Assembly (NCBI GenBank): GCA_965214095.1
Contig: OZ243938.1
Span: 1,554,197-1,618,196, forward strand
Direction of reading: 5' to 3'
From: Candidatus Poribacteria bacterium
GTDB lineage: Bacteria; Poribacteria; WGA-4E; WGA-3G
Length of the DNA stretch: 64,000 bases
Shown here: in pieces, positions 26,923 through 57,190 of the stretch
Position numbering within the stretch: the stretch's first letter is position 1
Layout of the letters: the number at the start of each line of letters is the position of its first letter
Notes under the pieces: model-generated
What the model was told of the DNA's origin: nothing
What the model saw: only the letters and a program-made list of their open reading frames with translations
The model's database searches: none
Position numbers and translations under genes: made by a program

Positions 26923-28983
26923 GTGCCAGACAAAACCACTTCAAACCTAATACTTAGACCACTTAACGACACAGATGTTACAACTTGGGAACTCCCCGAA
27001 GGTGCAATTACCCGATTGGGACGGGGTAGACTGGTGAATATATCATTTTCACCTGATGGGAAGTATCTTGCTGTAGCAACTCCTATCGGATGTTGGTTGT
27101 ATGACCTACCCACGCTTACCCCTCGCTCATTGATTGAAACGGAACGCGGAATGCTTACGAAAATTGCTTTTTCTCGTGATGGACGGTGGATTGCTACGGG
27201 CAACGCGGATGGTATCGTTAAGGTATGGGACACAGATACCTCACAGTGTCTTGCCAAAATAGATTACCACAAGATAATGGGAGGACCGTTGGGTTATTGT
27301 GATTTGAACTTTTCGGAGGATGGCAAATATCTTGCTGTGTCCAGCTCCAGTGGGTGTGCTGTCTTCACTTGGCACACAAATACTGATGAACCCATAGCAC
27401 AGTTCTCGATTGATGCAGCAGATACGAATGGAAAACGCGTTCCTATCTACTTATCTCCTAACAGGAATATGTTTGCATACGTATCTTCTGTGTCTCCCAT
27501 GACTACAATAATGATTAAAGATATTGACACCGGTGAACATATTACAGACTATAGTTGTCCAGCACTTTATGCATTCACAGGTCTTGTATTTTCACCGTGT
27601 GGTCAGTATCTTGCATCTGTACATCAGAACGGCAATGTGCAGGTGCGTAATATTGACAATGCCACATCGGAGATAGTACATACCTTATCAGATGCGACTT
27701 CTGTGAGACTTGCGTATACGTCTGTTGGTGCATTGCGTATTGCTGAAATTCATGAGGAAAAAGTTGTAATTTGGGATACGGAGCAGTTTCAGAAGGTAGG
27801 TACATTGGAATTTGAGAGACACGGAAGGAAAATATTTCGATTTTCGGACGATGGAACACATTTCGTAATCGCTAATTCACGCGAATTCCAAGTATGGAGG
27901 GATGGCGGATTGATTAAAGTTGTGTCTATGTCTGCTGCACATATAGGTATTATTAGATGGGTACGTTTTTCTCAACAGAAAAAGACACTAATTAGTGGAC
28001 ACGGACCAAGTAATATGTTCTGGTCTTTAGAGGATCACCAGTTACAACATATCTTCTATCCCAAAACAGAGGGTTACTTTTTGGGAAGAAGTAGCGTCTT
28101 ATCACCTTGTGAAGAATCTCTTGCTACCCCTATTTTAGGTATCCGCAATAGCAACGACATCGCTATTACAATTTGGCATATTACATCTGGCACCTTAATT
28201 GCTGAGATGACTGGACATGAAAGACATGTCGTCCAGATGGCGTATTCACCGTCTGGAGACTTTTTAGTTAGTGCATCGTCACTTGGTGAGCTCATTGTAT
28301 GGGACACGCAGTTTTGGGAAAAGCGTCACGAACTTATAGGACATACTAAAGATATTACGAGTGTCTTTTTTCACCCTGATGGGAAGCAGCTTGTCACCGC
28401 GTCCAATGACAGGACTGCACGAGTCTGGAATGTTGAGAATGGTGAACAGGTCGGTTCACTTCCTTTAGACACAATCATAAAAGATATATCCCTTTATAGA
28501 GGTGGATCCCAAGAAATCCAGGCGTTAATAAAATGGAAACAGCAATTGGAGTCTGAGCAGTCAACTGATCAAACCATTTGTTCTGATATCCGGTTTTCTC
28601 CGTGCGGTACACTCATCGCCGGTAGGTTATATCGGCGCGGTAAATGGAAGAAGAAAATGGCAAATGAGATTAGACTTTGGGATGCAGCAACCTTAGAAAT
28701 ACGAATGACGATACTGCTCCCTGCAGATGATTCCCTTACACGTGCGCTTACATTTTCACCATGCAGCCGCTACCTTGCCTCTGGAACGTGGTGGAAAAAA
28801 GGTTTAGAGAAGATGCGAATAAGGTTATGGGAGGTTGCGAGTGGGGAAAATATTGCTACCTTCTGGGGACATCCAACAGATATTCATGACCTGGCATTTT
28901 CACCTGATGGTTCGCTTCTCGCAAGTGGTAGTTATGATGGGACTATCCTCTTGTGGGACATGAAACCTTTTATTAACTCTTAG
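26923..28983 (+). CDS. WD40 beta-propeller repeat protein, array member W1.
   Basis: The start is a GTG 7 nt after AAGGAG. It has the N-terminal LNDTDVTTWELPEGAITRLGRG module, multiple FSPDG/FSPCG...LASG..DG.I.LWD blades, and the C-terminus ILLWDMKPFINS. Confidence 0.8.
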   Translation: MPDKTTSNLILRPLNDTDVTTWELPEGAITRLGRGRLVNISFSPDGKYLAVATPIGCWLYDLPTLTPRSLIETERGMLTKIAFSRDGRWIATGNADGIVKVWDTDTSQCLAKIDYHKIMGGPLGYCDLNFSEDGKYLAVSSSSGCAVFTWHTNTDEPIAQFSIDAADTNGKRVPIYLSPNRNMFAYVSSVSPMTTIMIKDIDTGEHITDYSCPALYAFTGLVFSPCGQYLASVHQNGNVQVRNIDNATSEIVHTLSDATSVRLAYTSVGALRIAEIHEEKVVIWDTEQFQKVGTLEFERHGRKIFRFSDDGTHFVIANSREFQVWRDGGLIKVVSMSAAHIGIIRWVRFSQQKKTLISGHGPSNMFWSLEDHQLQHIFYPKTEGYFLGRSSVLSPCEESLATPILGIRNSNDIAITIWHITSGTLIAEMTGHERHVVQMAYSPSGDFLVSASSLGELIVWDTQFWEKRHELIGHTKDITSVFFHPDGKQLVTASNDRTARVWNVENGEQVGSLPLDTIIKDISLYRGGSQEIQALIKWKQQLESEQSTDQTICSDIRFSPCGTLIAGRLYRRGKWKKKMANEIRLWDAATLEIRMTILLPADDSLTRALTFSPCSRYLASGTWWKKGLEKMRIRLWEVASGENIATFWGHPTDIHDLAFSPDGSLLASGSYDGTILLWDMKPFINS

Positions 28984-29118
28984 ACATTCCTTATCAATTC
29001 ATTTATAGCATTGCGATACCTGTTGCATTACACAACTCTGTCAGTCAATTTTACATAATATATCAGAGCATGAAGTTACCGAGTCTTGCATCTCATATAC
29101 CAATAAAGGAGATAATTT

Positions 29119-31089
29119 TTGAAAAACAGAGAACCCATAACACCTTCAATTAGACCTATCCACGACACGGATGTAACAACATGGGAACTCCCCGAAGGGG
29201 CAATTGCCCGGTTGGGGCGGGGTGGAATTATGGGTAATATCATTCACGCACCTGATGGAAAGCACTTTGTTGTTCCAAGTTCCATAGGAGTCTGGTGGTA
29301 CAATATATCTACAATGACACCTAATGCACTAATGGACACAGACAGAGGATACATTACTGCTATCTCATTTTCTCCAAATGGTAAAAGGCTTGCAACAGGT
29401 GATGGAGACGGTCTGGTCAAAGTATGGGATGTACAGAATGGTGTCAACATCGCGCAGATGGATCGGGATGAAAATGAGAAACCCTACCATTGTGTTTCCC
29501 GATTCGCATTTTCATCTGATAGTCAGTTTATTGCAGCTTCCAGTTTCCGTGATTATATCCTATACATCTGGAACACTGAAACGGGCAAACAAATTGGCAA
29601 ATTCCACGATAATACCAATTATAGGTGGTGGCCTACTCTGCTACGTCCTATTGCCTTCTCTCCGGATGGCAGTTTGATAGCGTGTACAATGCCTGATGAG
29701 GGTCTATTCGCACATGCAGATCGTCGTGGAACGATCCGTACTCCCAATCATTCTTCCAACTATATTTCTGTATGGAATATAAAAACAAGTGAACAAATAG
29801 CATGTATTACAGAACATCCTGATTTTGTTAATAGTATTGTCTTTTCTCCTTGTGGAAAGTTTCTTATCTCTGGAGGAAGAGATGGAACAGTGAGGGTGTG
29901 GTCAGTTGAAACTTGGAAGATGCTCCATTCATTTAATAATCTTGGAACAGAACGGAAACAACTCTTCTATTCACCTAAAAGTGAATTGTTTGCTAAAGAA
30001 GCCTCTAAGGATAATTTCACTGTATGGAATGTATATGAAGGTCAAAAAACCGACACATACCTTGAAGAACATCGAAATATTCAAATCCCATATTCCACAA
30101 AGGAAGCACCATTTATTGTAGCCGATGAGAACGAATTTAGAGTGTGGAAAGTCGGTGATACTCAACCACATACTTTTGTTCATTCACACATAGAATTCTC
30201 TGATTCAGTAGTATTCACAGAGGATGGAAAAACACTCGCAGGGGCAATTCGAGAAAATGGTATTATGTTGTGGGATATGACTAAACCATCATTTCCGCTA
30301 ACACATTTGAATATATCTGGTAACAAGAAAATTGTTTCTTCGTTTGGTTCAGAAAAGATTTCTGTTATGGGTATAGAGGGGAACGCAGCTAAAGTATGGG
30401 TGTCTGGAGAGAGTCAACCAAGACATATATTCACACTTCCTAACGGAAAAGAAGAAGCGACATCAGCAGCATTCGCACAGGTAGAGAACCTGTTAGTTTG
30501 CAGTGGAACACAAAATAAACTCTACATATGGAACACTCAAACGAAAGAAATATTACATACACTCACACCAGATTTATCGGATGAAGATTCCATAGCATAT
30601 TTGGAATTTAGTCCAGATGCAAAACTACTTTTCAGTGTCTCGGGACGGGGTCCCAGAACCTATCTATGGCAAGTTGAAACAGGAGAGATAATTGATACTT
30701 TCACCTATAATACCAGAGTCATTACTTTTTCCCCATGTAGTTCAATAATAGCTTGTGCAGTACCCCCAGGAATTATATTATGGGATGTAAATCGTTCTGA
30801 AACCGTCATCGCAATGCCTGAGAAGGAAGAAGATTTTCTTGTAGCATTGTCATTTTCTCCATGCGGAAGATATTTAGTTTCCGGTTCAAATTGGCAGCAA
30901 CGTATGAATATAAAGAAAGTGGCTATTCGGTTATGGGAGGTTGCAAGTGGCAAAAACATTGCCACTTTTAGAGGACACCCAACTGATATTCAGTCATTGG
31001 CTTTCTCCCCAGATGGTAAACTGTTAGCCAGCGCAAGTTTTGATGGTACCATCCTCCTCTGGGATATGAAACCCTTTATTAACTCTTAG
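29119..31089 (+). CDS. WD40 repeat protein, array member W2.
   Basis: The start is a TTG 7 nt after AAGGAG. It has the conserved N- and C-terminal modules (IHDTDVTTWELPEGAIARLGRG ... ILLWDMKPFINS). Confidence 0.8.
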   Translation: MKNREPITPSIRPIHDTDVTTWELPEGAIARLGRGGIMGNIIHAPDGKHFVVPSSIGVWWYNISTMTPNALMDTDRGYITAISFSPNGKRLATGDGDGLVKVWDVQNGVNIAQMDRDENEKPYHCVSRFAFSSDSQFIAASSFRDYILYIWNTETGKQIGKFHDNTNYRWWPTLLRPIAFSPDGSLIACTMPDEGLFAHADRRGTIRTPNHSSNYISVWNIKTSEQIACITEHPDFVNSIVFSPCGKFLISGGRDGTVRVWSVETWKMLHSFNNLGTERKQLFYSPKSELFAKEASKDNFTVWNVYEGQKTDTYLEEHRNIQIPYSTKEAPFIVADENEFRVWKVGDTQPHTFVHSHIEFSDSVVFTEDGKTLAGAIRENGIMLWDMTKPSFPLTHLNISGNKKIVSSFGSEKISVMGIEGNAAKVWVSGESQPRHIFTLPNGKEEATSAAFAQVENLLVCSGTQNKLYIWNTQTKEILHTLTPDLSDEDSIAYLEFSPDAKLLFSVSGRGPRTYLWQVETGEIIDTFTYNTRVITFSPCSSIIACAVPPGIILWDVNRSETVIAMPEKEEDFLVALSFSPCGRYLVSGSNWQQRMNIKKVAIRLWEVASGKNIATFRGHPTDIQSLAFSPDGKLLASASFDGTILLWDMKPFINS

Positions 31090-31227
31090 ACATTCCTTAT
31101 CAATTCATTTATAGCATAGCATAACAATACCGGTTGGATTACACAACTCTATCAGTCAATTTCACATTACATATCGTAGTGCGAAGTTACCGAACCTCGC
31201 AAGCCATAAAACAATAAAGGAGAATTG

Positions 31228-33222
31228 ATGGAAACCACAAAAACACAAACAACCACCCCTTTTCACTTTGATGATAGCAAAGTATGTAATTGGACACTTC
31301 CCGAAGGTGCAATCGCTCGATTAGGACGTGGAAGTGTACGTGATATGGAATTTTCACCGGATGGACAGTACTTCGCTGTTGGAACAACAATAGGACTTTG
31401 GATGTATCAACTTTCAACACTTTCCCCAATCACGCTCTGGGAAACTGATAGAGGATATATTGAAAGTGTTACATTCTCACCTGATGGTCGATGGATTGCT
31501 TCAACTACACTTAACGAAGCACTCAGGGTGTGGGATATCCAGAACAAGAGTTGTATTACTGAGATGGAATTTAAGGAGAAACATACCAATTTCGGAATTG
31601 ACAAACCTGTTTTTTCCGCAGATGGAGACTGTCTTGTTGCATTTAATGTGAACAACAAGGTTTATTTTTTGTGTCCTCGCACCGGTACGAAAATGAGAGA
31701 AACAGAAATCAAAGTAAATGGAACAGAAAACGAAACAATTGATGGGATCTATCCCACTTGTTTTTCTCCGGATATCAGTTTGTTGGCAGGTGCGTGTTGC
31801 GATCATAGAAACCGTACCGTTGAATTCATTGCACTGTGGGATGTGGAGACAGGTGAACAAGTCACTCGTCTTGAATGGACTGAAAGATGGGGTAACCTCT
31901 GTTTTTCACCGTGTGGAAGGTTTCTTGCTGCCGGCAGTTCAGAGGGTAAAATTCATGTGTGGGATGTGGAAAGTGGAAGTCTGATTGCAAGCTATTCTGA
32001 CTATGGAGATGCACGGATGACACCACATTATCCCTCGGAAGGTGGATTGATTGCAACTATGGTTTTTCCATCTGAACCCAAAATTGAAGTCTGGGATTTA
32101 GAAAGAAACGAAAAAATGGCGACGTTCGAAAAAGGGAGCAAACATAGTTTTGTCCGTTTTTCGAAAGATGACACAAAATTTGCATATACTGATGATGGGG
32201 AAATCAAATTCTGGACAAAAGAAAAACCCATCTCGAAATTACTGCCGAGTATTAAAGGACATACACGTCCAGTCAGTTCATTAGTCTATGCAACAGATGA
32301 GAAAACGCTTGTGGCTACGTACTGGGGGTGGAAAGCACTTTTTTGGGATGTTCCACGCAGACGAGGACAACGTCCAACTGGAACAGATTTACCCACAAGT
32401 AAAACACTTCATCTCTATCAGGACAATGAGGGGAAAGTATATGCAACGGGTGGAGACAGTGCCTACCTAAGAGTGTGGAAGAATGGCAATAGTGAATCAA
32501 TCACCGATATTCCAATACATGAGCAAAAACTGCAATCAATCACAGGTAGTGAGGCGTTCGCATTAACAGCAGACCGGATAGCGCGGGCAGATAGAGATCA
32601 TAACATCTATGTATGGATGTGTAAATCGAAATCAAATAGTAGTGATAATAAAAAGGACTGGATATTGCAAGTAAATCTGACCGGACATACAGAATACATT
32701 GAAGCTTTGGCATTTAGTCCTGACGCAAAACAACTCGTGAGTATATCGCGAGATAAAACTGCCAGATTATGGGATGTTGAATCAGGAGAACAGATCATAC
32801 AACTACCTTTAACCCCGCCTTCAAGTCCCAGACGATACCGAAGTTATGACAGAGGTATTACATTTTCACCTCGTGGAGACTTAATTGCAGGTGGACAGTG
32901 GGGAGAGATAGTGCTGTGGAATGCGACAGATGGAAAAATCTATAGGACAATTCCACAACCAGAAGGAAATCAGCGACCGATTACATTATGTTTTTCACCA
33001 TGTGGGGAGTATCTCCTTTCCGGTTCATGGTGGCAAGGTGGTTTGCAGAAAGTGCCTATCCGTTTGTGGAAAGTAGCGACAGGTGAGAATATTGCCACGT
33101 TTTCTGGACACACTACAGACGTTCAGTGTTTTGCATTTAATCAGGATTGCACTGTTCTCGCCAGCGGTGGATATGATGGGGTAATATTCCTCTGGGATTT
33201 GAAACCGTATATCAATTCATAA
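31228..33222 (+). CDS. WD40 repeat protein, array member W3.
   Basis: The ATG follows AAGGAG. It has the N-terminal motif NWTLPEGAIARLGRG and the C-terminus IFLWDLKPYINS. It is a close paralog of W4. Confidence 0.8.
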   Translation: METTKTQTTTPFHFDDSKVCNWTLPEGAIARLGRGSVRDMEFSPDGQYFAVGTTIGLWMYQLSTLSPITLWETDRGYIESVTFSPDGRWIASTTLNEALRVWDIQNKSCITEMEFKEKHTNFGIDKPVFSADGDCLVAFNVNNKVYFLCPRTGTKMRETEIKVNGTENETIDGIYPTCFSPDISLLAGACCDHRNRTVEFIALWDVETGEQVTRLEWTERWGNLCFSPCGRFLAAGSSEGKIHVWDVESGSLIASYSDYGDARMTPHYPSEGGLIATMVFPSEPKIEVWDLERNEKMATFEKGSKHSFVRFSKDDTKFAYTDDGEIKFWTKEKPISKLLPSIKGHTRPVSSLVYATDEKTLVATYWGWKALFWDVPRRRGQRPTGTDLPTSKTLHLYQDNEGKVYATGGDSAYLRVWKNGNSESITDIPIHEQKLQSITGSEAFALTADRIARADRDHNIYVWMCKSKSNSSDNKKDWILQVNLTGHTEYIEALAFSPDAKQLVSISRDKTARLWDVESGEQIIQLPLTPPSSPRRYRSYDRGITFSPRGDLIAGGQWGEIVLWNATDGKIYRTIPQPEGNQRPITLCFSPCGEYLLSGSWWQGGLQKVPIRLWKVATGENIATFSGHTTDVQCFAFNQDCTVLASGGYDGVIFLWDLKPYINS

Positions 33223-33316: not shown

Positions 33317-35326
33317 ATGAAAAATGAAACCACATCAACCCCAGTACTTAGACCACATGATGACACAGATGTAACAACATGGGAACTGCCCGAAGGGGCA
33401 ATTGCTCGATTGGGACGGGGTGGTCTGAGGGATATGGCATTTTCACCAGATGGACATCATTTTGCAGTCGGAACGAACATAGGACTCTGGATATACGAAC
33501 TTTCCACGCTGTCCCCGATCGCGCTGTGGGAAACGGATAGGGGATATATTGATAGTGTTACATTTTCACCAGATGCTCAATGGCTTGCCGCATATACATA
33601 TCAGCAAGCACTCAGAGTATGGGACATCCAAAATCAAGTGTGTGTTGCAGAGATGGAGTTGCCGAAAGGACGAAAAGGGCAGATTCGTTTGTCTAATATG
33701 AAACCGATCTTTTCTCAAGATGGAGAAGAACTCTTCGCTTTCAATTATTTCATCGGGAGGGTTTATATCTGGTGTCCACGAACTGGCGCGTTAAAAAATG
33801 AAATAGAGATAAAATTAAGTGATACTGACATCAAATCCATAAATGCCATCTATCCAAGCTACTTTTCTCCAGATTTGAGTTTGTTGGCAGGCACTTGTTA
33901 CGATCATAGTGACCGTACCGCTGAATTCATTGCAGTGTGGCAGGTAGAAACGGGAGAACAAATCGCTCGTCTTGATTGGACTGAAAGGTGGGGTCGTCAT
34001 TGCTTTTCGCCGTGTGGACGATTTTTTGCTACCACTGGCTCAGAAGGAAGATTACATGTGTGGAACGTGGAGACTGGAAACCTTGAGGAAACCTATACCG
34101 ATCACGAGGATACTCAAATACATCCATATTATACACCGGAAGGTGAATTAATAGCCGCGGTAGTCTTTCCATCTCAGCCTAAACTTGAAGTCTGGAATTT
34201 AAAAAAAGGTGAAAAAATTGACACATGTGAACATCAGAGTCAGGGAAGTTCTGTTCGTTTTTCGACGAGTGGTACACAATTCGCCTACACTGATAGAGGT
34301 GAAATCAAAATCTGGATAGAAGGTAGCCCCATCGCTCAAGCATGCCCGACTATTCAGGGGCACACTGGGACTGTCGGTTCATTAGTCTTCGCACCGGATA
34401 AAAAAACGTTAGTGACTGCCTACTGGGGTAGGAACACGGTTTTATGGGATGTTTCAAGTCAGTGTGCCCGATATCCAACCGAAAAAGAACTACCCAATAG
34501 TATACGTGATGTTTACCCGACTTCAATCGGGACAATCTTTGCTGTTGGCGGAGACGAAAAAACATTAGAAGTATGTGAGTTTGGAAGCGGTGAATCCATC
34601 GCTGAAATTCCTATTCCTGAATCCGGGTTGTTATTGGGAACGGGGACCGATGCGTCAGCACTGACAGCTCAACGGTTGGCACGTGCTGGTAAAGATCGCA
34701 ACATCTATGTGTGGGAGTACACACCTTCATCTAATGAAATAAACGAAGGAGGAAACTGGGAAAAGTGTGCCGTCCTTATAGGACACGCAGAATATGTTAA
34801 TGCGTTGGCATTGAGTCCCGATGGAAAGCGGCTCGCAAGTATCCCTATAGTGCGTCGTCCACAAAAACGAACCGCTCTATTATGGGATGTTGATGCTGAA
34901 GAACAGATTACTCAGTTACCCCTAACTACACCGGAACGGGGAGGATATAACAGTTACCAGACGGGGATAACGTTTTCACCAGATGGTAACATAATCGCTG
35001 GTGGATTTTGGAACGAGATTGTTTTGTGGGATGCAACAGATGGAAAAACGCTTATGACGATTCCTCAATCGGAAGAGAATCAGCGACCAATTACACTTCG
35101 TTTCACGCCGTGCGGCCAATATTTGGTTGCGGGTGCTTGGTGGAAAGGTGGACTAAAAAAGACATCCATCTGTTTATGGGAAGTCGCAACAGGTAAGAGG
35201 ATCACCACGTTTAAGGGACATACCACTGATGTACAGTGCTTTGCATTTTCGCAGGACTGTACCGTTCTTGCAAGTGGTGGACATGATGGTGCGATTTACC
35301 TTTGGGATCTGAAACCTTATCTGTAG
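33317..35326 (+). CDS. WD40 repeat protein, array member W4.
   Basis: AAGGAG lies 7 nt before the ATG. It has DDTDVTTWELPEGAIARLGRG ... IYLWDLKPYL. Confidence 0.8.
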   Translation: MKNETTSTPVLRPHDDTDVTTWELPEGAIARLGRGGLRDMAFSPDGHHFAVGTNIGLWIYELSTLSPIALWETDRGYIDSVTFSPDAQWLAAYTYQQALRVWDIQNQVCVAEMELPKGRKGQIRLSNMKPIFSQDGEELFAFNYFIGRVYIWCPRTGALKNEIEIKLSDTDIKSINAIYPSYFSPDLSLLAGTCYDHSDRTAEFIAVWQVETGEQIARLDWTERWGRHCFSPCGRFFATTGSEGRLHVWNVETGNLEETYTDHEDTQIHPYYTPEGELIAAVVFPSQPKLEVWNLKKGEKIDTCEHQSQGSSVRFSTSGTQFAYTDRGEIKIWIEGSPIAQACPTIQGHTGTVGSLVFAPDKKTLVTAYWGRNTVLWDVSSQCARYPTEKELPNSIRDVYPTSIGTIFAVGGDEKTLEVCEFGSGESIAEIPIPESGLLLGTGTDASALTAQRLARAGKDRNIYVWEYTPSSNEINEGGNWEKCAVLIGHAEYVNALALSPDGKRLASIPIVRRPQKRTALLWDVDAEEQITQLPLTTPERGGYNSYQTGITFSPDGNIIAGGFWNEIVLWDATDGKTLMTIPQSEENQRPITLRFTPCGQYLVAGAWWKGGLKKTSICLWEVATGKRITTFKGHTTDVQCFAFSQDCTVLASGGHDGAIYLWDLKPYL

Positions 35327-43879: not shown

Positions 43880-44017
43880 CGACTTGTGCTAAAAAACTAA
43901 ATGTTAAGTATTGATTCACACATTCAGGTCCTTTTGTCCGTATTTCTTTCACTTAAGATGCTCTTTAGTCCCGTATGAAGATAAAAAACAAATAGGGTAA
44001 TTTGACTTCAAAGTCCA

Positions 44018-44100
44018 GCGCGCTTACAAAGCGCGCCTACGGGTTTGACAAGCGCGCAAGCAAAGCACGCCTACAGGTCTTGGGTTAATTAAGATTAACC
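44018..44100. promoter_or_regulatory. Structured segment of the 400-bp W8-W9 spacer: a GCGCGC-TTACAAA-GCGCGC hairpin, a second GCGCGC copy, and the perfect AT-rich hairpin GGTTAAT-TAAG-ATTAACC.
   Basis: The inverted repeats are at 44018-44036 and 44083-44100. This is the only long intergenic gap inside the WD40 array, and the conserved leader begins right after it. Confidence 0.3.
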
Positions 44101-44282
44101 GTTTAATAAATTAATCTTCATTAGGGACGATATGCTTATAGTGTTAATGCTATTAAATGTAAAAACCAACAAGACAGAATGTTAACTGGCACAAGTCGTA
44201 AATTAGCATATATGTGCATCAGATTGAACTAAAATATTCTTTAGTGTCCAAACAAGCCGTAGCAATTGCTGAGGAGATTATT

Positions 44283-48503: not shown

Positions 48504-50567
48504 TTGGAAAAGAGAATACATACAACCCCCTCATTTAGACCTATTGACGACACAGATGTAACAACTTGGAAACTACCTGAAGGTGCAATCGGCAGATTGG
48601 CACGTGGACGGGTGTCAGATATGTCCTTTTCAGTTGATGGTAAATATCTTGCTGTCGCAACCCCTATCGGTTGTTGGTTGTATGATCGATCATCCCTGAA
48701 ACCACTCGACTTGTTCGAAACAGAATGCGGTATGCTTGATTCCATTGTCTTTTCACACGACACCCAATTCATTGCTACAAGTAATAAAGATGGTGTTCTA
48801 AAGATATGGGATACACAAACGCTAAAGTGCCTCGCAAAGATAAACCATCGCAAGAATGTAGATGCAACTTCAGGATATTTTTGGAACCTCCATTTTTCTC
48901 GGGACAACGCATACTTAGCAGCATCTTGTTTTGACAAACAAAATGTTGTCTACGCGTGGCACAAAAACACTGATGAACCTGCGATTTACTTCCCAATTGA
49001 CTTAGAAAAAGAAAGTGGACACGACTTTCCTATCTGTTTCTCTCCGATAGGGAATCTACTTGCATACGTGTCTGCTGGAACCCCGCAGAACACTCTCACC
49101 ATTTCCGATATAGAGACTAATGAACACATCACACATCTCAACTGTATAGCACCATTGGTATACCGAGGTCTTGTCTTTTCTCCTTGTGGACAATATATAG
49201 CTGCTATCAATCTGAACAATGAGATGTTGGTGTGGAATGTTCACAACGGCACTTTGGAAACGGAACCCACTACTTATAATGGGAGGAGGTTAATCCCTGC
49301 CTATACACCCGATGGCACACTACGCGTTGCCGATATTTACGACTATAAAGTTGTAATATGGGATGCTATCCGAAAAGAAATAATGGATACCTTTAAATGT
49401 CAGAACCGCTGGCATGATCATTTTTCATCCGATGGTGCACACATCGCAACGATCCTCTCGCGCAGCGATCTCTGTGTGTGGACAGTCGGGTCACCGTCAA
49501 CAAAAGTTACAAGTCCTGCTGATCATAAACCTGTTCCATATTCGGTTGTTTTTTTTAAAAAAGGTAAAACATTAACAAGTCCAGAAATGTTTGGTGCACA
49601 GCTCGTTTGTTGGAATGTTGCACAGAGGCAAACAGAACAGATTTTCCCAACGCTGAGGATGCAGGCACAGTACACGACTCAAACTAAAAATCTCACAACG
49701 GAAGAAAGACAGGATTTGTTCCGAGTCAGCACATTGTCTCCTTGTGGAAAACGACTAGCACTTTGCAAACTTCCGAGGGGTTCAATTGAAATCTGGGACA
49801 TTACGTCTGAAACACTCATTATAAAACTCTCGGACAGTAGAGGATTTGACGCCGCAATGTGTTTTTCACCTTCTAATAAACATCTCATCGGCACAGCACC
49901 TACGGGCGGTACAGGAGACATCGGTGTATGGGATACACAGTCTGGGAAGAAAGTTAATATGCTCACAGGACATACGAATTATATTTTAACAGTAGCTTTC
50001 CATCCAAGCGGTAAACGACTCGCAACCGTCGCCAAGGATAGAACAGCAAGGCTCTGGGATATTGACAGCGGTGAACAACTCGGAGTTTTCCCCACAGAAC
50101 TACCAGAAGATACCTCCCTCTATAGAGGCGATCCAGAGCAGATACACCAATATATTCAAAAATATAAAAAAAGAAGTGGCTATAAGTGCATCCCTTATAA
50201 ACTCGTCTTCTCTCCTTGTGGCACAACGATCGCCTGTGGGATAAAAGATCATATCCAGTTGCGAGACACAGATACCTTAGAGACACAGATGCTCATACTG
50301 CTACCAAAAACGTGCACCAAACCGTTTGCGCTTACATTTTCCCCCTGCGGAAAATACCTCGTCTCTGGGTCGTGGTGGATAAAGGGATTGGACAAAGTAT
50401 CCATAAGAATATGGGAAGTCGCAACGGGTCAAAATATACACACATTCTGGGGACATACAACAGATGTACAGGATTTAGCATTTTCACCGGATGGCAAATA
50501 TCTCGCAAGTAGCAGTTATGATGGCACCATACTCCTCTGGGATATGAAACCTATTATATGCACCTAA
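48504..50567 (+). CDS. WD40 repeat protein, array member W11.
   Basis: The start is a TTG 8 nt after AGGAG (MEKRIHTTPSFRPIDDTDVTTWKLPEGAIGRLARG). It is a close paralog of W9 and W14. Confidence 0.75.
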   Translation: MEKRIHTTPSFRPIDDTDVTTWKLPEGAIGRLARGRVSDMSFSVDGKYLAVATPIGCWLYDRSSLKPLDLFETECGMLDSIVFSHDTQFIATSNKDGVLKIWDTQTLKCLAKINHRKNVDATSGYFWNLHFSRDNAYLAASCFDKQNVVYAWHKNTDEPAIYFPIDLEKESGHDFPICFSPIGNLLAYVSAGTPQNTLTISDIETNEHITHLNCIAPLVYRGLVFSPCGQYIAAINLNNEMLVWNVHNGTLETEPTTYNGRRLIPAYTPDGTLRVADIYDYKVVIWDAIRKEIMDTFKCQNRWHDHFSSDGAHIATILSRSDLCVWTVGSPSTKVTSPADHKPVPYSVVFFKKGKTLTSPEMFGAQLVCWNVAQRQTEQIFPTLRMQAQYTTQTKNLTTEERQDLFRVSTLSPCGKRLALCKLPRGSIEIWDITSETLIIKLSDSRGFDAAMCFSPSNKHLIGTAPTGGTGDIGVWDTQSGKKVNMLTGHTNYILTVAFHPSGKRLATVAKDRTARLWDIDSGEQLGVFPTELPEDTSLYRGDPEQIHQYIQKYKKRSGYKCIPYKLVFSPCGTTIACGIKDHIQLRDTDTLETQMLILLPKTCTKPFALTFSPCGKYLVSGSWWIKGLDKVSIRIWEVATGQNIHTFWGHTTDVQDLAFSPDGKYLASSSYDGTILLWDMKPIICT

Positions 50568-50599
50568 AACAACTGATAAAAAATAACTTGGAGGTTTCC

Positions 50600-52804
50600 A
50601 TGGATAATCAACGATCACAAACACCCACACAAATACCCCAAACAAACGCAGATATTACCACTTGGTCTCTCCCTGAGGGTGCAATTGCACGTTTAGGGCG
50701 CGGTCGTAACCGTGGTGGTCTAACATTTTCACCTGATGGTGATTCTCTTGTTGTTGCGACAGACATCGGGTGTTGGTTGTATGACCTTGATACGCTGACG
50801 CCGAGTGCGTTATGGGCAACAGAACGGGGGATGGTTTCTGCCATCTCCTTTTCTCATAATGGGAAGTGGATTGCTACCACCAACTGGGACGGCATCGTGA
50901 AGATATGGGACACACAAACCTTACGCTGCATTTCCCAAATAGAACCACCTTGGCATCCTAATACATATGTAGATTTTTCATCAGATGGGCAGCACTTAGC
51001 TCTGGTTGGTAGTACACAAACTTCTGCATGGACAGCTGTTTACGACTGGCACTTGAACACAACTACGCCTATCATAAACTTAGATTTTACGCTGAAACCA
51101 CAGGTATACTCTGCAGTCTCAACAGCTTTTTCCATTAATGGTAATTTATTTGCGTATACGTCCGACTACAATATGACATCTGTGATGCACATGGAGACAG
51201 GGGAGATCATAGCGAAATTTACTGACACATATACCGATGACACATATACCAAAGGTCCTATTTTAGGGACCACCAACTTAGTTTTTTCACCTTGTGGAGA
51301 GTTCCTTGCGGGTTGTAATAAAAAGGACACGGTTCATGTATGGAATATCCAAAGCGGGAACTTTACGATGGAACCGACAACTTATCATCAGAGCACTCGG
51401 GTACTGCCGACCTACCTATCTGATGGCACATTACGGGTTGCTGCGCGTCATCCAAAAGAAATAATCATCTGGGATACGAAGTCGCAGGAGAAGGTGGACT
51501 CCATTGCATATTCGGGAGGGATCTTCTGGGCAACGTGCTTTTCAGTTGATGGTAGAAAGTTCGCAATCGCCAGTAGATACGATGATCTTAAGCTCTGGTG
51601 TGAAGGTTGTTCCTCAAAAGTCGTATCTCTGACTGAACATCTACATCCGGACCCTGTCCAAAGGTTCCCGAGCACACTGGATTTTTCTAAGGACAGTCGG
51701 ACACTTTTCTGTGGATACTGGAAACACATCGGACACCTTGCTTGGGATGTTTCGAAGCACCAAATAGCACGGACATTTCCGTCACATTCACATGAATATT
51801 CGGCACATCCCGATATGCCTTTCACGATGTCACACAATGCGGAACTGATAGCTACTGCAAACGGCATGGACAGCCCCATTAAAGTTTGGGATATAGCGTC
51901 AAATACGCAAGTTGCAGAGTTCCTCGAATCTTCATGGCAAGTGTGCTGGCTGACTTTTTCTTCAACAGCAGAATATCTTCTGAGTAGCATGAATAGAGAC
52001 GCAGCCAAGGTTTGGGATGTAGAATCTGGCACGCAAGTCGCAGAACTTACTGAGAAGGATAACTTAATGGAGAAAGGGTTCAAGATGAAAATGTTTTCTC
52101 CGACAGATGAATATATACTCGGTATCAGTAAGGATCGTATCAGCGTGTGGGATGCCTTGAAGTGGGAACATCTTTATGAAACTCACCTCAAGGGTTTTAA
52201 CAGGTCAAGGAGAGAGGGAGTATTTAAGTTTGGGACACCGTTGAGGTTTCATCCAGACGGTCAGCATTTCATCACTGCTGGATACGAAAAGGATGCTTTT
52301 GTCTGGGACCTCAAATGCGGTGAACAAGTGGGTTCACTTCACACAGAAAAATGTTTAGATACAACCCTCTATAGAGGTGAGCCACAAGATATCCAGCGTC
52401 TCCGCGAACAACAGAATGCGGACTCTCGACGTATCCGTGGAATTGAAACATCCCCCTGCGGCACTTTTATTGCTGGCGCAATGCATAACGAAATTAGGGT
52501 ATGGGACGCTGCTACCTTACAAACCCAAATAGCAATCATACCATCCATTGGCTGTCAGAAGTCTTATATAATAGTGTTTTCACCTTGCAGCAAGTATCTG
52601 GCAACAGGTGCGTGGTGGCAAGAGGGACAAACAAAAATGTCTATCAGGTTGTGGAATATCATTACAGGTGATAATATTGCCACTTTTTGGGCACACACGA
52701 CTGATGTTGATAAACTTGCGTTTTCACCGGATGGCAAATATCTCGCAAGCGGTAGTTATGATGGTACTATCCTCGTCTGGGATATGAAACCATTTATAAA
52801 TTAG
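50600..52804 (+). CDS. WD40 repeat protein, array member W12.
   Basis: The ATG follows GGAGG (MDNQRSQTPTQIPQTNADITTWSLPEGAIARLGRG). It is a paralog of W13. C-terminus ILVWDMKPFIN. Confidence 0.8.
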   Translation: MDNQRSQTPTQIPQTNADITTWSLPEGAIARLGRGRNRGGLTFSPDGDSLVVATDIGCWLYDLDTLTPSALWATERGMVSAISFSHNGKWIATTNWDGIVKIWDTQTLRCISQIEPPWHPNTYVDFSSDGQHLALVGSTQTSAWTAVYDWHLNTTTPIINLDFTLKPQVYSAVSTAFSINGNLFAYTSDYNMTSVMHMETGEIIAKFTDTYTDDTYTKGPILGTTNLVFSPCGEFLAGCNKKDTVHVWNIQSGNFTMEPTTYHQSTRVLPTYLSDGTLRVAARHPKEIIIWDTKSQEKVDSIAYSGGIFWATCFSVDGRKFAIASRYDDLKLWCEGCSSKVVSLTEHLHPDPVQRFPSTLDFSKDSRTLFCGYWKHIGHLAWDVSKHQIARTFPSHSHEYSAHPDMPFTMSHNAELIATANGMDSPIKVWDIASNTQVAEFLESSWQVCWLTFSSTAEYLLSSMNRDAAKVWDVESGTQVAELTEKDNLMEKGFKMKMFSPTDEYILGISKDRISVWDALKWEHLYETHLKGFNRSRREGVFKFGTPLRFHPDGQHFITAGYEKDAFVWDLKCGEQVGSLHTEKCLDTTLYRGEPQDIQRLREQQNADSRRIRGIETSPCGTFIAGAMHNEIRVWDAATLQTQIAIIPSIGCQKSYIIVFSPCSKYLATGAWWQEGQTKMSIRLWNIITGDNIATFWAHTTDVDKLAFSPDGKYLASGSYDGTILVWDMKPFIN

Positions 52805-52861
52805 TTTATATGTGCGTCATGTTGATACAAACAAGCAGTAGCAATTGTTGAGGAGATTATT

Positions 52862-55048
52862 ATGCAACATAAACAAACCTATAATACGAATCAAATAAAA
52901 TCTGATAATACAGATGTAACAACTTGGCACCTTCCCGATGGAGCAATTGCACGGTTAGGACGAGGTCGTATCCGTGGGGGTCTAACATTTTCACCTGATG
53001 GTAATTCTCTTGTTGTTGCGACAGACATCGGGTGTTGGTTGTATGACCTTGAAACATTAACACCACGGGCATTGTGGAATACAGAACGAGGGATGGTTTC
53101 TGCCATCTCCTTTTCTCATAATGGGAAGTGGATTGCTATCGGAAATATGCACGGCACCGTGAAGGTATGTGACACACAAACCTTACAATCCATTGCAATA
53201 ATAGAAACGAACCGACTTGTTACACGTATTAATATTTCTCCGAGTGGACAGCACTTGGCAATTGCTACAGTAGCTGGTGGCGTTCAAACTACTATTTATG
53301 CTTGTCGTCCTCATATCAGTACACCGATTGCAAACTTTGCTTTAACGCAAGAACAACGGGTAAAATGTACAACATCAATAGCATTTTCGCCTAATGGCTG
53401 CCTATTTGCTTACACGTCTGACATCAATAAAACATCTGTGATATATGTAGAGACAGGAGAAATCATCGCGGAACTTCACGATACGTATACCACGTATACC
53501 GAAGAACCTGGTGGATGTACGAAATTGGTTTTTTCACCGTGTGGTAAGTTCCTTGCGGGGTGTAATAAGAAGGACACGGTTCATGTCTGGGATATCCAAA
53601 GCGGTAACTTCGCAATAGAACCGACAACCTATCATCAGAGCACTCGCGTGCTGCCGACTTATCTATCTGATGGTACCCTAAAGGTTGCAGCGTGTTATCG
53701 CAAAGAGGTAATATTCTGGGATACAAAGTTACAACAGAAGATGGATGCTTTTGAATATATAGGGAGCGAAGGTGGGGCAACGTGCTTTTCAGTTGATGGT
53801 AGAAAGTTCGCAATTGCCAGTAAATACGACGATCTTAAGGTCTGGTGTGAAGGTTCTCCCTCAAAAGTCGTATCTTTACCTGAACATCTACATCCCGACC
53901 CTGTGCAAAGGTTCCCGAATATACTGGATTTTTCTAAAGACAGTCGGACGCTTTTCTGTGGATATTGGAAACACACCGGGTACCTCGCTTGGGATGTTTC
54001 GAAGCACCAAATAGCACGGACATTTCCGTCACATTCACGCGGATATTCGGCACATCCCGAAATGCCTTTCACGATGTCACACAATGCGGAACTGATAGCT
54101 ACAGCAAACGGAACGGACAGTCCCATTAGTGTTTGGAATGTAGTCTCAAACACGCAAGTGGCAGAGTTCCTCAAATCTTCACGGCAAGTGTGCTGGCTAA
54201 CGTTATCTCCAAAAGGAGAATATCTTGTGGGTAGCATGAAGGGAGACGCAGCCAAGGTATGGGATGTAGAATCTGGCACGCAAATCACAGAACTTACAGA
54301 GAAGGATACTTCGTTGACGAAAGGAGTCAGAATGAAGATGTTTTCCCCGACAGGTGAATATATACTCGGTATCGGTAAGGATCGTATCAGCGTGTGGGAT
54401 GCCTTGAAGTGGGAACATCTTTATGAAACTCGCCTCAAAGAGTTTAACCGGTCCAGGAGAGACGGAGTGTTTAAGCTTGGGACACCGTTGAGGTTTCATC
54501 CAGACGGTCAGCATTTCTTCACTGCTGGATACGAAGTGGGTGCTTATGTGTGGGAACTCAAAAACGGTGAACAAGTGGGGACACTACCCACAGAAATATG
54601 CATAGATACAACCCTATATAGAGGAGATCCACAGAACATCCAGCTGGTCCGTAAACAGCAGGAAACGACCCGTCGCGTCCGACAACTTGAGGTATCTCTT
54701 TGCGGTACTATTATTGCTGGCGCAATGCAAAACGAAATTAGGGTATGGGATGCAGCCACACTACAAACAAAAATGGTGATAATACCTCCGAAAGGATGTC
54801 AAAAACCTTTCACCTTAGCCTTTTCACCGTGTAGTCAATATCTTGCTGCTGGCGTATGGTGGCAACACGGACAAATAAGAATGTCTATCCGGGTATGGAA
54901 TATCACTACTGGTGAAAATATTACTACCTTCTGGGCACATCCTACCGATATCGATAGACTTAGGTTTTCACCGGATGGCAAATATCTCGCAAGTGGCAGT
55001 TATGATGGCACCATCCTGCTCTGGGATATGAAACCATTTATAAATTAG
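52862..55048 (+). CDS. WD40 repeat protein, array member W13.
   Basis: It has the conserved leader and MQHKQTYNTNQIKSDNTDVTTWHLPDGAIARLGRG. C-terminus ILLWDMKPFIN. Confidence 0.8.
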   Translation: MQHKQTYNTNQIKSDNTDVTTWHLPDGAIARLGRGRIRGGLTFSPDGNSLVVATDIGCWLYDLETLTPRALWNTERGMVSAISFSHNGKWIAIGNMHGTVKVCDTQTLQSIAIIETNRLVTRINISPSGQHLAIATVAGGVQTTIYACRPHISTPIANFALTQEQRVKCTTSIAFSPNGCLFAYTSDINKTSVIYVETGEIIAELHDTYTTYTEEPGGCTKLVFSPCGKFLAGCNKKDTVHVWDIQSGNFAIEPTTYHQSTRVLPTYLSDGTLKVAACYRKEVIFWDTKLQQKMDAFEYIGSEGGATCFSVDGRKFAIASKYDDLKVWCEGSPSKVVSLPEHLHPDPVQRFPNILDFSKDSRTLFCGYWKHTGYLAWDVSKHQIARTFPSHSRGYSAHPEMPFTMSHNAELIATANGTDSPISVWNVVSNTQVAEFLKSSRQVCWLTLSPKGEYLVGSMKGDAAKVWDVESGTQITELTEKDTSLTKGVRMKMFSPTGEYILGIGKDRISVWDALKWEHLYETRLKEFNRSRRDGVFKLGTPLRFHPDGQHFFTAGYEVGAYVWELKNGEQVGTLPTEICIDTTLYRGDPQNIQLVRKQQETTRRVRQLEVSLCGTIIAGAMQNEIRVWDAATLQTKMVIIPPKGCQKPFTLAFSPCSQYLAAGVWWQHGQIRMSIRVWNITTGENITTFWAHPTDIDRLRFSPDGKYLASGSYDGTILLWDMKPFIN

Positions 55049-55105
55049 TTTATATGTGTGTCATGTTGAGCTAAACAAACTGCAGCAATTGCTGAGGAGA
55101 TTATT

Positions 55106-57190
55106 ATGCATCATATTCAAACCTATAATACGAATCAAATGAAATCTGATAATACAGATGTAACAACATGGGAACTACCTGAAGGTGCAATCGACAGATT
55201 AGCAAGGGGACGGGTGTCGGATATGTCATTTTCAACTGATGGTAAGTATCTTGCCGTCGCAACGCCGATCGGTTGTTGGTTGTATGATAGATTGTCGCTG
55301 AAAACGATCGCGTTATTTGATACAGAAAGTGGAATGCTTAATACCATTGCCTTTTCACCCGACACCCAGTTCATTGCTACCAGTAATAAAGATGGTGTTT
55401 TAAAGGTATGGGATACACAAACGCTAAAGTGTCTTGCAAAGATAAACCATCGCAAGAATGTAGATGCAGCTTCAGGATATTTTTCGAAGCTCTGCTTTTC
55501 TCAAGATAACCAATACTTAGCCGCATCCTGTTTTGATAAACAAAATGTTGTCTACGCATGGCAACAAAACACTGATAAACCTATGATCTGTTTACCGATT
55601 GATGTAGAAGAAACGAAGGGACACAGCTTTCCCATCTGTTTCTCACCTAATGGGTATCTACTCGCGTATGTGTCTTCTGTATCTCTCCAGAACACTGTAA
55701 CGATTTCCGATATTGAAACCGGTGAACACATCACACATCTTAGCCAATCCTCGGCACTGTCTACATACCGTTTTTCCCCTTGCGGACAATATATAGCAGC
55801 TGCTAATCGGAACAATGAAGTGTTGGTATGGAATGTTCACAACGGCACTTTGGAAACGGAACCAACAGCGTATGATGGAAAGTGGTTAAGCATTGCCTAT
55901 ACACCTTATGGCATACTACGCGTTGCCGATATTTACGACTATAAAGTTGTGATTTGGGATGCTATCTCAAAAGAAAAAATAGATACCTTTGAACGCGATA
56001 AACCCAGGTCTGATCATTTTTTAAGCGGACATCATTTACACTTTTCATCCGGTGGCGCACACATCGCAACGATCCTCTCGCGCAGTAAGCTCTGTGTGTG
56101 GACGGTCGGGGCACCATCAAGTAAAGTTTCAAGTCCTGCTGATCATAAACCTGTTGTCCACGCGGTTGCTTTTTCTAAAGACGGAAAGACATTAGCAAGT
56201 AGATATGCGTGGGGTATGTATCACGTATTCTGGGATGCTACACAGCGACAAACAGAACAAATATTCCCAACGCCAAATATCCAAGCACAACGCACAGCTC
56301 TAACTAAAGACCTAACAGAAGAAGAGAAAAAGCAGTGGTACCGTGTCAGTGCCTTGTCACCTTGTAGGGAACGACTGGCACTTCGCGACCTTCCGAGAGG
56401 GTCAGTTGAAATTTGGGATATTGCGTCTGAAACCCTTATTACAGAACTCTCGGACAGTAAGAAATTTAGATCTTGGCGTGAAATGCGTTTTTCACCGACA
56501 GGTGAACGTTTTATCGATACAGCACCGACAGGTGATATTGATGTCTGGGATACACAGTCTGGTGAGAAAGTCAATACACTCGCAGGAGATAACCGACTGA
56601 TTTTGACAACTGCGTTTCACCCTGATGGTAAACAACTCGCTGCTGCACCAAAAGGGAGTGCTGGAATGCTTTGGGATATTGACAGCGGTGAACAACTCGG
56701 AGTGTTCCCTACAGAACTGCCAGAAGATACCTCCCTCTATAGAGGCGATCCAGAGCAGATACACCAATATATTCAAAAATATAAAAAAATAATCAAGCAA
56801 TATAAGTGTATCCCTTACAAACTCGCCTTCTCTCCTTGTGGCACGATGATCGCCTGTGGGATACAAGATCATATCCGGTTGCGAAATACAGCAACCTTAG
56901 AAACGCACATGCTTATACTACCACCCGAAACGTGTAGCAGACCGTTTGCACTCACATTTTCCCCCTGCGGAAAATACCTCGTCTCTGGGTCGTGGTGGAT
57001 AAAGGGGTTGGACAAAGTATCCATAAGAATATGGGAAGTCGCAACGGGTCAAAATATACACACATTCTGGGGACATACAACAGATGTGCAGGATTTAGCA
57101 TTTTCACCGGATGGCAAATATCTCGCAAGTAGCAGTTATGATGGCACCATACTCCTCTGGGATATGAAACCTTTTACCGGTTCAGATTGA
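55106..57190 (+). CDS. WD40 repeat protein, array member W14.
   Basis: It has the conserved leader with the AGCAATTGCT palindrome and MHHIQTYNTNQMKSDNTDVTTWELPEGAIDRLARG. Its 3' ~250 bp is nearly identical to W9 and W11. Confidence 0.8.
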   Translation: MHHIQTYNTNQMKSDNTDVTTWELPEGAIDRLARGRVSDMSFSTDGKYLAVATPIGCWLYDRLSLKTIALFDTESGMLNTIAFSPDTQFIATSNKDGVLKVWDTQTLKCLAKINHRKNVDAASGYFSKLCFSQDNQYLAASCFDKQNVVYAWQQNTDKPMICLPIDVEETKGHSFPICFSPNGYLLAYVSSVSLQNTVTISDIETGEHITHLSQSSALSTYRFSPCGQYIAAANRNNEVLVWNVHNGTLETEPTAYDGKWLSIAYTPYGILRVADIYDYKVVIWDAISKEKIDTFERDKPRSDHFLSGHHLHFSSGGAHIATILSRSKLCVWTVGAPSSKVSSPADHKPVVHAVAFSKDGKTLASRYAWGMYHVFWDATQRQTEQIFPTPNIQAQRTALTKDLTEEEKKQWYRVSALSPCRERLALRDLPRGSVEIWDIASETLITELSDSKKFRSWREMRFSPTGERFIDTAPTGDIDVWDTQSGEKVNTLAGDNRLILTTAFHPDGKQLAAAPKGSAGMLWDIDSGEQLGVFPTELPEDTSLYRGDPEQIHQYIQKYKKIIKQYKCIPYKLAFSPCGTMIACGIQDHIRLRNTATLETHMLILPPETCSRPFALTFSPCGKYLVSGSWWIKGLDKVSIRIWEVATGQNIHTFWGHTTDVQDLAFSPDGKYLASSSYDGTILLWDMKPFTGSD

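Follow-up and report, generated by a model that had tools for sequence, protein, structure and literature searches.

A 64,000-nucleotide stretch of a Candidatus Poribacteria genome (contig OZ243938.1, positions 1,554,197 to 1,618,196; hereafter the window) carries a tandem array of genes for WD40 β-propeller proteins with conserved termini, here called the W family, lying downstream of a gene for an extracytoplasmic function (ECF) sigma factor. The array comprises 14 consecutive plus-strand open reading frames (ORFs) of 656-748 amino acids, W1 to W14, spanning positions 26908-57190, and a divergent 15th copy, W15, at 59943-61973. In many Poribacteria proteins an ECF sigma factor is extended at its C-terminus by this module, recognisable by its signature termini. 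For this reason it seems somewhat better than an even bet (roughly 55%) that the stand-alone W copies are partner or regulatory modules of ECF-type sigma signalling.

In the alignment, every copy from W1 to W14 shows the N-terminal motif D[VI]TTW.LP[ED]GAI.RL[GA].G followed by a first blade, and all share a last blade ending in ...GTILLWDMKPFIN, W3 being the most deviant in both respects. Matches to the WD40 model PF00400 reach E values of 1e-34 to 1e-69 in the seven copies scanned with Pfam, and many other β-propeller models match too. Gene starts were chosen by their Shine-Dalgarno sequences (AAGGAGA or GAGGAGA), present 6-9 nucleotides 5' of the start codon in every W gene. Pairwise identity is 58% for W3/W4, 61% for W5/W10, 72% for W12/W13, 74-83% within the W9/W11/W14 triplet and 32-49% for the remaining pairs, and the nucleotide identity of the centres is about 0.45-0.56 between non-sister copies. 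W15 is 26-28% identical to W1-W14, contains eight PF00400 repeats (total E 5.5e-69) and retains EAIARFGRG and a C-terminal LWDMK. It has two possible starts, GTG 59943, which overlaps the stop codon of the preceding gene (D2, see below), or ATG 60090. An earlier note on this DNA, made from the sequence alone, had described 14 co-oriented WD40 genes in 26923-57190 with a constant N-terminal module, a constant last blade and the four sister groups listed above. ORFs, Pfam matches, alignment and pairwise identities bear this out, and all 14 genes are real, but the count was incomplete, as the 15th paralog lies beyond two further genes for sigma-2-domain proteins. The centres, which had been called highly divergent, are indeed less conserved than the ends but are alignable throughout and conserved within orthogroups, and hence not hypervariable.

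The W proteins are predicted to be double seven-bladed WD40 propellers. An AlphaFold2 model of W10 based on a 90-sequence alignment (predicted local distance difference test score, pLDDT, 87.1; predicted template modelling score, pTM, 0.86) contains 56 strands, corresponding to 14 four-stranded blades, with a short helical insert between blades 11 and 12 and disorder at residues 1-17. This agrees with the WD40 assignment of the earlier note, for which a check of a 2x7-blade structure had been proposed; the model gives 14 blades with high confidence. Foldseek retrieves solved tandem double propellers with E values of 1e-28 to 1e-37 (2ymu of Nostoc and the UTP/WDR3 type), and also ciliary double propellers with template modelling (TM) scores of up to 0.70. 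The last blade has only three C-terminal strands in the model. Presumably the conserved N-terminal strand (AIARL) completes blade 14 and in this way unites the constant N- and C-terminal parts.

When the conservation among paralogs is mapped onto the secondary structure of the W10 model, the scores are 0.87 for the N-terminal strand, 0.68 for blade 1, 0.59 for blade 2, 0.45-0.59 for blades 3-12, and 0.73 and 0.80 for blades 13 and 14, respectively. The top-face (D-A and B-C) loops of blades 3-12 score 0.34, compared with 0.55-0.60 for their strands and bottom loops. In the terminal blades (1-2 and 13-14), the top loops are conserved (0.67-0.75). Among 41 W10 orthologs of different genomes, every blade is 0.81-0.94 conserved.

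The gene at the head of the array (26175..26795, plus strand) encodes an ECF sigma factor of 206 amino acids, recognised by Pfam (Sigma70_r2, Sigma70_r4_2 and Sigma70_ECF) and by NCBIfam TIGR02937 (94.4 bits; cutoff 42.9). Orthologs with 84-97% identity head arrays at six of the loci fetched from other genomes (designated by L numbers: L001, L003, L007, L011, L022 and L027), giving seven genomes with the window. A different, long ECF type (cluster c29) adjoins W genes in L041, L043, L051 and L055 and was confirmed by Pfam for the L041 copy. No anti-sigma gene lies beside the window ECF gene, which is flanked by tRNA-Ile upstream and by a 127-nucleotide spacer to W1 (26923) downstream, and no ORF with a transmembrane segment or an anti-sigma domain was found adjoining it. 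Upstream of the gene is an ECF-type promoter-like motif, TGTAAC-N17-CGTA (26084..26110, plus strand), of putative function. It may represent an autoregulatory promoter of the AAC-N16-17-CGT type, and in five other genomes the orthologous ECF gene is preceded by the conserved form TGTA[AG]C-N17-CG[TC][AT]. It is the sole intergenic match in the window, where the motif is thus not repeated as an internal promoter within the array; one other strict match falls inside the 16S gene.

Gene fusions provide a further link to sigma factors. L067 encodes an 869-amino-acid protein consisting of an ECF sigma factor and a complete W module, which contains TW.LPKDAI.RLGKG and terminates in GTILLWDLKPFINS. 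The nearest relatives of this protein are unfused W proteins of 666-697 amino acids, which indicates that the fusion is recent. At least 60 further Poribacteria protein clusters, of 860-900 amino acids, combine Sigma70_r2, Sigma70_r4_2 and WD40 domains. The four that were examined align end-to-end with W1-W14 and possess both TW.LPEGAI.RFGKG and ...GTIL.WDLKPFI. Their propellers are 24-35% identical to W proteins over 650-770 columns, which is within the range of the window paralogs, and by these sequence criteria the fusion propeller is taken to be homologous to the W family.

Two paralogous genes follow W14: D1 (57264..58541, plus strand) and D2 (58666..59943, plus strand, with the Shine-Dalgarno sequence TAGGAGG before ATG 58666), each encoding 425 amino acids and sharing 67% identity. 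Pfam detects no sigma domain in either protein, even at E values of up to 1. However, residues 4-90 of the family profile align with ECF region 2 (hhalign probability 81%, E 1.2e-5), an AlphaFold2 model (pLDDT 85) matches region 2 of sigmaE with Foldseek TM scores of 0.66-0.77, and genuine ECF sigma factors are recovered at E about 1e-7 when the family alignment is used in an exhaustive profile search. On these profile and model comparisons, the first ~90 residues (about 1-95 in D1) are assigned to a sigma region-2 domain. No match to sigma region 4 was obtained; residues 130-425 form an α/β domain with TYW3-like similarity, and D1 and D2 are therefore not sigma factors. D1 has 109 homologs, with Poribacteria in every source name given, and homologs lie inside W arrays in L003, L006, L067, L068 and L069, hence in six genomes with the window. 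The claims of the earlier note that an ECF gene lies directly upstream of the array, that two sigma-2-domain proteins lie downstream of it and that the locus as a whole is associated with sigma factors are accordingly upheld, the last by the arrays headed by an ECF gene in seven genomes, the fusion clusters and the D proteins found inside arrays. The combination of sigma region 2 with a TYW3/UPF0130-like domain appears to be new, as no description of it was found in the literature searched. As a separate observation, the D-type C-terminal domain also occurs behind Clp_N domains in other proteins (P0356, P0359, P0361), which suggests a mobile module joined to different protein-binding heads.

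A mechanism can be proposed along these lines. The N-terminal strand and blades 1-2 and 13-14 probably meet in space, where they would close the fold and offer a shared docking surface. The common partner would be the array-head ECF sigma factor, the embedded sigma-2/TYW3-like proteins D1 and D2, or both, and each type would bind ligands or partners of its own through its particular top-face loops in blades 3-12. The array is probably co-transcribed with, or under the control of, the array-head sigma factor, since the W genes have their own ribosome-binding sites, intergenic terminators are absent and a single ECF-type promoter is located upstream of the sigma gene. Its evolution proceeds by the duplication and deletion of genes and by recombination at the conserved ends, so that near-identical strains can differ in copy number and order, while each type stays under purifying selection.

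Several points weigh against a role in sigma signalling. The array-head ECF factor shares no more than 23-26% identity with the fused sigma domains and thus belongs to a different ECF group. The rRNA-linked arrays of L010, L033 and L038 seem to have no ECF gene, and many W genes have no sigma gene within a distance of 10 kb. Poribacteria may hold many ECF genes, so that chance adjacency is to be expected in part. That the N-terminal strand pairs with blade 14 is deduced from strand counts, not from coordinates, and conservation of the terminal blades could serve fold closure only. Finally, the binding of W proteins to a sigma factor or D1/D2, docking by the constant module and a single 36-kb transcript arising from one promoter are inferences.

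The same points lend themselves to an alternative that is unlikely, if far from negligible, namely that W proteins are generic eukaryote-like WD40 scaffolds which have expanded in a sponge symbiont and mediate cellular or host protein interactions unrelated to sigma factors. The constant ends would then be purely structural (closure and the interface between propellers), an idea that the three-stranded last blade makes plausible, and sigma genes would be neighbours through shared synteny or co-regulation, in keeping with the W loci that lack them and with the distance between the array-head and the fused ECF factors. WD40 proteins are, moreover, reported to be highly abundant in Poribacteria (PMC3909097; PMC8163846). 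Generic scaffolds do not readily explain why the sigma fusion apparently arose more than once (the recent L067 case and the at least 60 older clusters), or why sigma-2-domain proteins recur inside the arrays of distant genomes. Nor does closure require that top loops be conserved in blades 1-2 and 13-14 and not in blades 3-12.

The family, defined by its terminal signatures, appears on sequence evidence to be specific to the phylum Poribacteria. A pattern scan of 185,579 species genomes yielded 395 relatives. Of the 66 listed loci, 62 belong to metagenome-assembled genomes (MAGs) named as Poribacteria, three to MAGs labelled 'uncultured bacterium' and one to a MAG labelled Binatia. Together with the 16S identity of the window to L001 (99.68%) and L027 (99.42%), these labels place the window in Poribacteria, the lineage guessed from the sequence in the earlier note. 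The Candidatus Binatia locus (L036), in which one W gene is 82% identical to W7, has a 16S gene 80.5% identical to that of the window; the contig might have been mis-binned or be chimeric, or else the lineage might be a divergent one. In the fetched loci, every one of the 188 full-length family ORFs shares its strand with the seed gene of the locus, and arrays reach 9-11 genes within 22-kb loci. Orthogroups of the W1, W3, W6, W7, W9 and W10 types are recognisable across these loci at 63-95% identity.

The individual genes, all on the plus strand, differ in how widely they are shared. W1 (26923..28983, with AAGGAGA before the GTG start at 26923) has counterparts in 15 loci at only 63-68% identity. 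W2 (29119..31089), preceded by a type A spacer (see below), has a 97% identical ortholog in L001, the closest genome. W3 (31225..33222), the sister of W4 (33317..35326), is missing from the L001 array and has orthologs of 78-91% identity. W5 (35345..37354), the sister of W10, follows W4 after only 18 nucleotides and corresponds to a chimeric gene in L001. W4 and W6 (37450..39642) are each represented in L001 at 95%. W7 (39775..41811) belongs to the most widely conserved orthogroup: it is the best match of 45 ORFs in the fetched loci, the closest 18 being 79-87% identical. W8 (41888..43879) has a type B spacer and leader. W9 (44283..46364) forms a young triplet with W11 and W14 and has a 95% identical ortholog in L037. 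W10 (46419..48404), the copy that was modelled, has orthologs of 75-95% identity in dozens of genomes. W11 (48504..50567) combines a W9-like body with a type A spacer and leader. W12 (50600..52804), the sister of W13, is supported by its ORF, Pfam and pairwise identity, and W13 (52862..55048) and W14 (55106..57190) by their ORFs, pairwise identity and Shine-Dalgarno sequences. W15 has orthologs (81-93% identity) at or near the downstream end of the array in L005, L027 and L028.

The array locus itself is syntenic across the phylum, with the 16S gene as its conserved left anchor. In the window, the complete 16S rRNA gene (24194..25744, plus strand; Rfam RF00177, 1543 bits) is followed by tRNA-Ile (GAT) (25865..25938, plus strand; ARAGORN and Rfam) and not by tRNA-Ala or a 23S gene, which makes this an unlinked rRNA operon. 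A 16S gene lies beside the W array in 16 fetched loci (among them L001, L027, L003, L033, L009, L010, L038, L007, L061, L017, L039 and L054), with 80-99.7% identity to that of the window and at least 90% in 15 of the 16. The most common other W locus, conserved in 19 genomes (for example L014-L016, L019-L021, L023-L026, L029, L034, L040, L048, L052, L057, L058 and L060), contains in order a SpoIIE/PP2C phosphatase with Reg_prop repeats, a TPR membrane protein, one to five W genes of W7- and W10-like type, PspA/IM30 and an AAA ATPase. The sensor phosphatase and PspA/IM30 are stress-signalling neighbours, and this second locus may be the ancestral home of the family. In four loci (L008, L009, L010 and L045), W genes alternate with small proteins of ~160-190 amino acids (cluster c19) that each possess a single transmembrane helix and an acidic tail very rich in cysteine; the window contains none of them.

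The arrays turn over very rapidly, their content and order differing among genomes of 98.4-99.7% 16S identity. The L001/L037 array runs W1-like (68%), W2 (97%), W4 (95%), W10 (95%), W6 (95%) and W7 (86%), and then continues with different genes; it lacks W3, and a DDE transposase follows the ECF gene (in L001 a DDE_5 transposase at 8072-9466, between the ECF gene and the first W gene). L027 has only four W genes after its ECF gene, compared with 14 (+1) in the window, and carries W5-, W6- and W7-type genes (86-96%) elsewhere on its chromosome, flanked by a different long ECF-type protein. The comparison of copy numbers in relatives suggested by the earlier note thus uncovers syntenic arrays of four and of at least 14 copies at more than 99.4% 16S identity. 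Traces of the underlying events are visible. Synonymous divergence (dS) between orthologs is mosaic in W6, W9 and W10, at least one terminus having 0.19-0.36 and the middle of the gene 0.02-0.03. The gene in slot 5 of L001 joins a W5-type 5' end to a W10 body, and decayed W 3' ends (last-blade remnants) found directly after the ECF stop codon in L027, L003, L007 and L022 are deletion scars. The breakpoints of chimeric genes fall in the conserved ends, and taken together these observations identify the ends as recombination substrates. Within the window, the N-terminal, central and C-terminal regions are mostly congruent in phylogeny and mosaicism is confined to the spacer plus leader, whereas between genomes it is clear. 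Spacer types, mosaic dS and the L001 chimera likewise sustain the suggestion that gene-plus-spacer units have been duplicated repeatedly.

Such strain-variable content could also be read as host adaptation, by W proteins acting as secreted or translocated effectors on the sponge, for example in evading phagocytosis. This seems improbable. In its favour, copy number differs to an extreme degree between near-identical strains, and a modulation of host processes has been ascribed to the eukaryote-like repeat proteins of sponge symbionts (PMC8163846). The short leader, disordered at residues 1-17 in W10, polar in every copy and of two conserved types, might serve in non-classical export. No signal peptide or transmembrane segment was detected in any W copy (maximum 19-residue hydropathy ≤1.57), however, and no W protein matches the C-terminal sorting domain of the type IX secretion system (TIGR04183), so that from their sequences the proteins are judged soluble and cytoplasmic. 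Fusion to a cytoplasmic sigma factor likewise places the module in the cytoplasm, and sponge-associated MAGs showed no enrichment of WD40 (PMC8163846). The family does have exported cousins. Just upstream of its sigma-W fusion, L067 encodes three more canonical, highly repetitive WD40 proteins with an N-terminal signal or anchor and a W.LPPGA..R.GKG motif (579-7242); these form a different subfamily.

Between paralogs, the median proportion of differing synonymous sites (pS) is 0.64 at the N-terminal end, 0.72 at the C-terminal end and 0.74 in the centre, and the corresponding nonsynonymous proportion (pN) is 0.28, 0.21 and 0.46. As synonymous sites are saturated in the ends and pN there is about half, the ends are kept by purifying selection on the protein. 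Saturated pS also rules out recent gene conversion as the cause of the constant ends for most pairs, the exception being the young W9/W11/W14 triplet (C-terminal pS 0.14). The dN/dS ratio (omega) between the window and its closest relative is 0.21-0.54 for W genes and 0.12-0.18 for the ECF gene and a flanking gene. It is 0.30-0.39 in the centres of young paralog pairs, and in the top loops 0.37-0.50 in the four youngest pairs and 0.17-0.44 in two older pairs; positive selection in the top loops was rejected on the region-level values of the four youngest pairs. The dN/dS check proposed in the earlier note therefore reveals purifying selection in the central blades, top loops included, and such variation as exists concerns gene content and order and does not reflect rapid change of sequence.

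In STAND/NLR proteins (fungal HET-E/NWD, bacterial Avs/bNACHT), whose paralogs evolve with recombination, WD40 surfaces act as variable modules for recognition. It is very improbable that W genes form a comparable immunity-like or anti-phage repertoire under diversifying selection, as the earlier note had suggested from the constant ends and variable centre of the tandem paralogs, and as their rapid gain and loss and a type IIG restriction-modification gene 10 kb upstream might seem to support, because omega is 0.2-0.5 wherever tested, even in the most variable loops, each type is 63-95% identical across the phylum, saturated dS between paralogs makes the diversity old, and no NTPase (NACHT/NB-ARC), nuclease or other effector domain, nor any near-identical internal repeats, occurs in the W genes or, for such domains, beside them. 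Membership in a defence system was separately ruled out, Pfam finding only WD40 domains and PADLOC nothing meaningful beyond a weak, generic repeat match (HEAT-ARM_XIII, E 1e-7 to 1e-14). Old orthogroups with omega below 1 are a poor fit to a diversifying repertoire and are better explained by subfunctionalised modules with type-specific surfaces.

With Shine-Dalgarno-guided starts, the spacers measure 18-135 nucleotides (W4-W5 18, W11-W12 32), apart from one of 403; the range of 55-140 bp given in the earlier note has to be corrected accordingly, and its single long exception between W8 and W9 is retained. The length of that spacer is accounted for by an insert of ~180 nucleotides (43963..44141, unstranded) resembling a miniature inverted-repeat transposable element, with the inverted ends TTAGTCCCGTA / TAGGGACGATATG. 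Relatives of the insert are present in L001 (9482-9608), L041 and L030, where they point the opposite way with respect to the W genes. Comparison of the spacers recovers the two conserved families noticed before. Type A precedes W2, W3, W4, W6 and W11, and type B precedes W8, W9, W10, W13 and W14; the spacers of W5, W7 and W12 are short or of no clear type. In at least 25 loci, W genes come with type A spacers (in the window, for example, 28984-29118 and 31090-31224), which share 70-95% nucleotide identity across species. Type B spacers are restricted to the closest relatives; in the window array they distinguish the half that has expanded recently.

Type A spacers contain a GC-rich inverted repeat of the type GCGCGAGG-TTACCGGA-CCTCGCGC, ~25 nucleotides upstream of the ribosome-binding site. 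In this repeat 79% of cells pair, compared with 71% after a +2 slide, and covariation is no better than in shuffles; RNAalifold yields no consensus RNA structure for type A spacers. Sigma-70-like promoters and terminators in the array are as numerous as in shuffled sequence, with no excess. Between the ECF stop codon and the W1 ribosome-binding site there is an imperfect inverted repeat of 19-20 nucleotides (26825-26893; GGGGAGAGAAACGACACCC ... GGGTGTCGTCCCTCTACCCC) that has no U-tract and could reduce the transcription that runs on from the sigma gene into the array.

Among known systems, the closest parallel is the sigma factor group ECF57 of Planctomycetes, which bears WD40-like C-terminal extensions proposed to act by protein interaction and has no experimentally characterised member according to a review (PMC8999054); about 5.3 copies are present per planctomycete genome (preprint 10.1101/2019.12.11.873521). 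A WD40 propeller is coupled to an ECF sigma factor in that group as it is in the at least 60 Poribacteria fusion clusters, which resemble ECF57 in architecture. In the window, by contrast, the propeller is stand-alone and in 15 tandem copies, the adjoining sigma factor has no extension, and W1-W15, which start 15-25 residues ahead of their first strand, have no sigma domain. The window thus holds the module and not the fusion, and its W genes, which do not combine sigma factor and propeller in one chain, are relatives of the ECF57 module rather than members of the group.

The best Foldseek match of the W10 model, the Npun_R6612-type protein of PDB entry 2ymu (E 2.6e-37, 24% identity), is likewise bacterial and composed of WD40 repeats only. 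It is highly repetitive according to the title of the entry, whereas W blades are individually diverged. It is a cyanobacterial protein whose 14 repeats form two seven-bladed propellers, and it is not known to have an N- or C-terminal signature, a gene array or a sigma link.

The eukaryote-like WD40 proteins reported from sponge symbionts belong to the same phylum and domain class as the W proteins. Those reports consist of Pfam domain counts, by which WD40 abundance in Poribacteria is high (PMC3909097), and do not mention a defined family, a tandem array, conserved termini, an association with sigma factors or turnover in copy number. Many poribacterial WD40 proteins are reported to bear a Por-secretion C-terminal domain, which the W proteins of the window lack. 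Hence the abundance of WD40 domains in Poribacteria is already known from domain counts, and ECF-WD40 fusions from classification work. No description was found, in the literature searched, of the W family, of its arrays beside unlinked 16S genes, of turnover at the strain level, of the split arrangement of sigma factor and propeller or of the sigma-2/TYW3-like proteins.

Poribacteria are dominant uncultivated sponge symbionts whose WD40 proteins have so far been counted as 'eukaryote-like' and never explained. Since the W family is the same module as that of the ECF fusions, it would be tied to transcription signalling and not to host mimicry. The ECF-WD40 sigma factors of Planctomycetes are numerous and uncharacterised, and separate sigma and propeller genes offer a direct handle on the role of the propeller. 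The sigma-2/TYW3-like proteins, as a new domain architecture, may act on RNA polymerase. The array locus beside the unlinked 16S gene is also unusually dynamic, differing between strains that are more than 99% identical in 16S. A broader proposal, doubtful and offered as speculation, is that Poribacteria use a modular, trans-acting form of sigma regulation, in which interchangeable propeller 'sensor cassettes' share a docking module for an ECF sigma factor and for sigma-2/TYW3-like proteins with a possible affinity for RNA polymerase, and are gained, lost and reshuffled by recombination at their constant ends. If so, related symbiont strains would differ in the signals that they couple to transcription, possibly tracking their sponge host, and this would amount to a novel mode of ECF sigma control, with the dynamics of gene arrays put to a new use in signalling by bacteria.

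Upstream of the 16S gene, the window carries a molybdenum hydroxylase cluster of three genes (9177-12863) with a FAD-binding subunit, an ORF of 156 amino acids presumed to be the iron-sulphur subunit and a molybdenum-cofactor-binding subunit of the CO/xanthine dehydrogenase family. It is followed at 13291-16371 by the gene for the 1026-amino-acid single-chain restriction-modification enzyme mentioned above (PADLOC type IIG REase-MTase, E 3.7e-251; Pfam N6_Mtase and Type_ISP_C), and at 20464-23867 by PhyH dioxygenase and polysaccharide deacetylase paralogs. An unlinked 16S gene and a molybdenum oxidoreductase were reportedly present on 64K2, the first fosmid from Poribacteria, as well.

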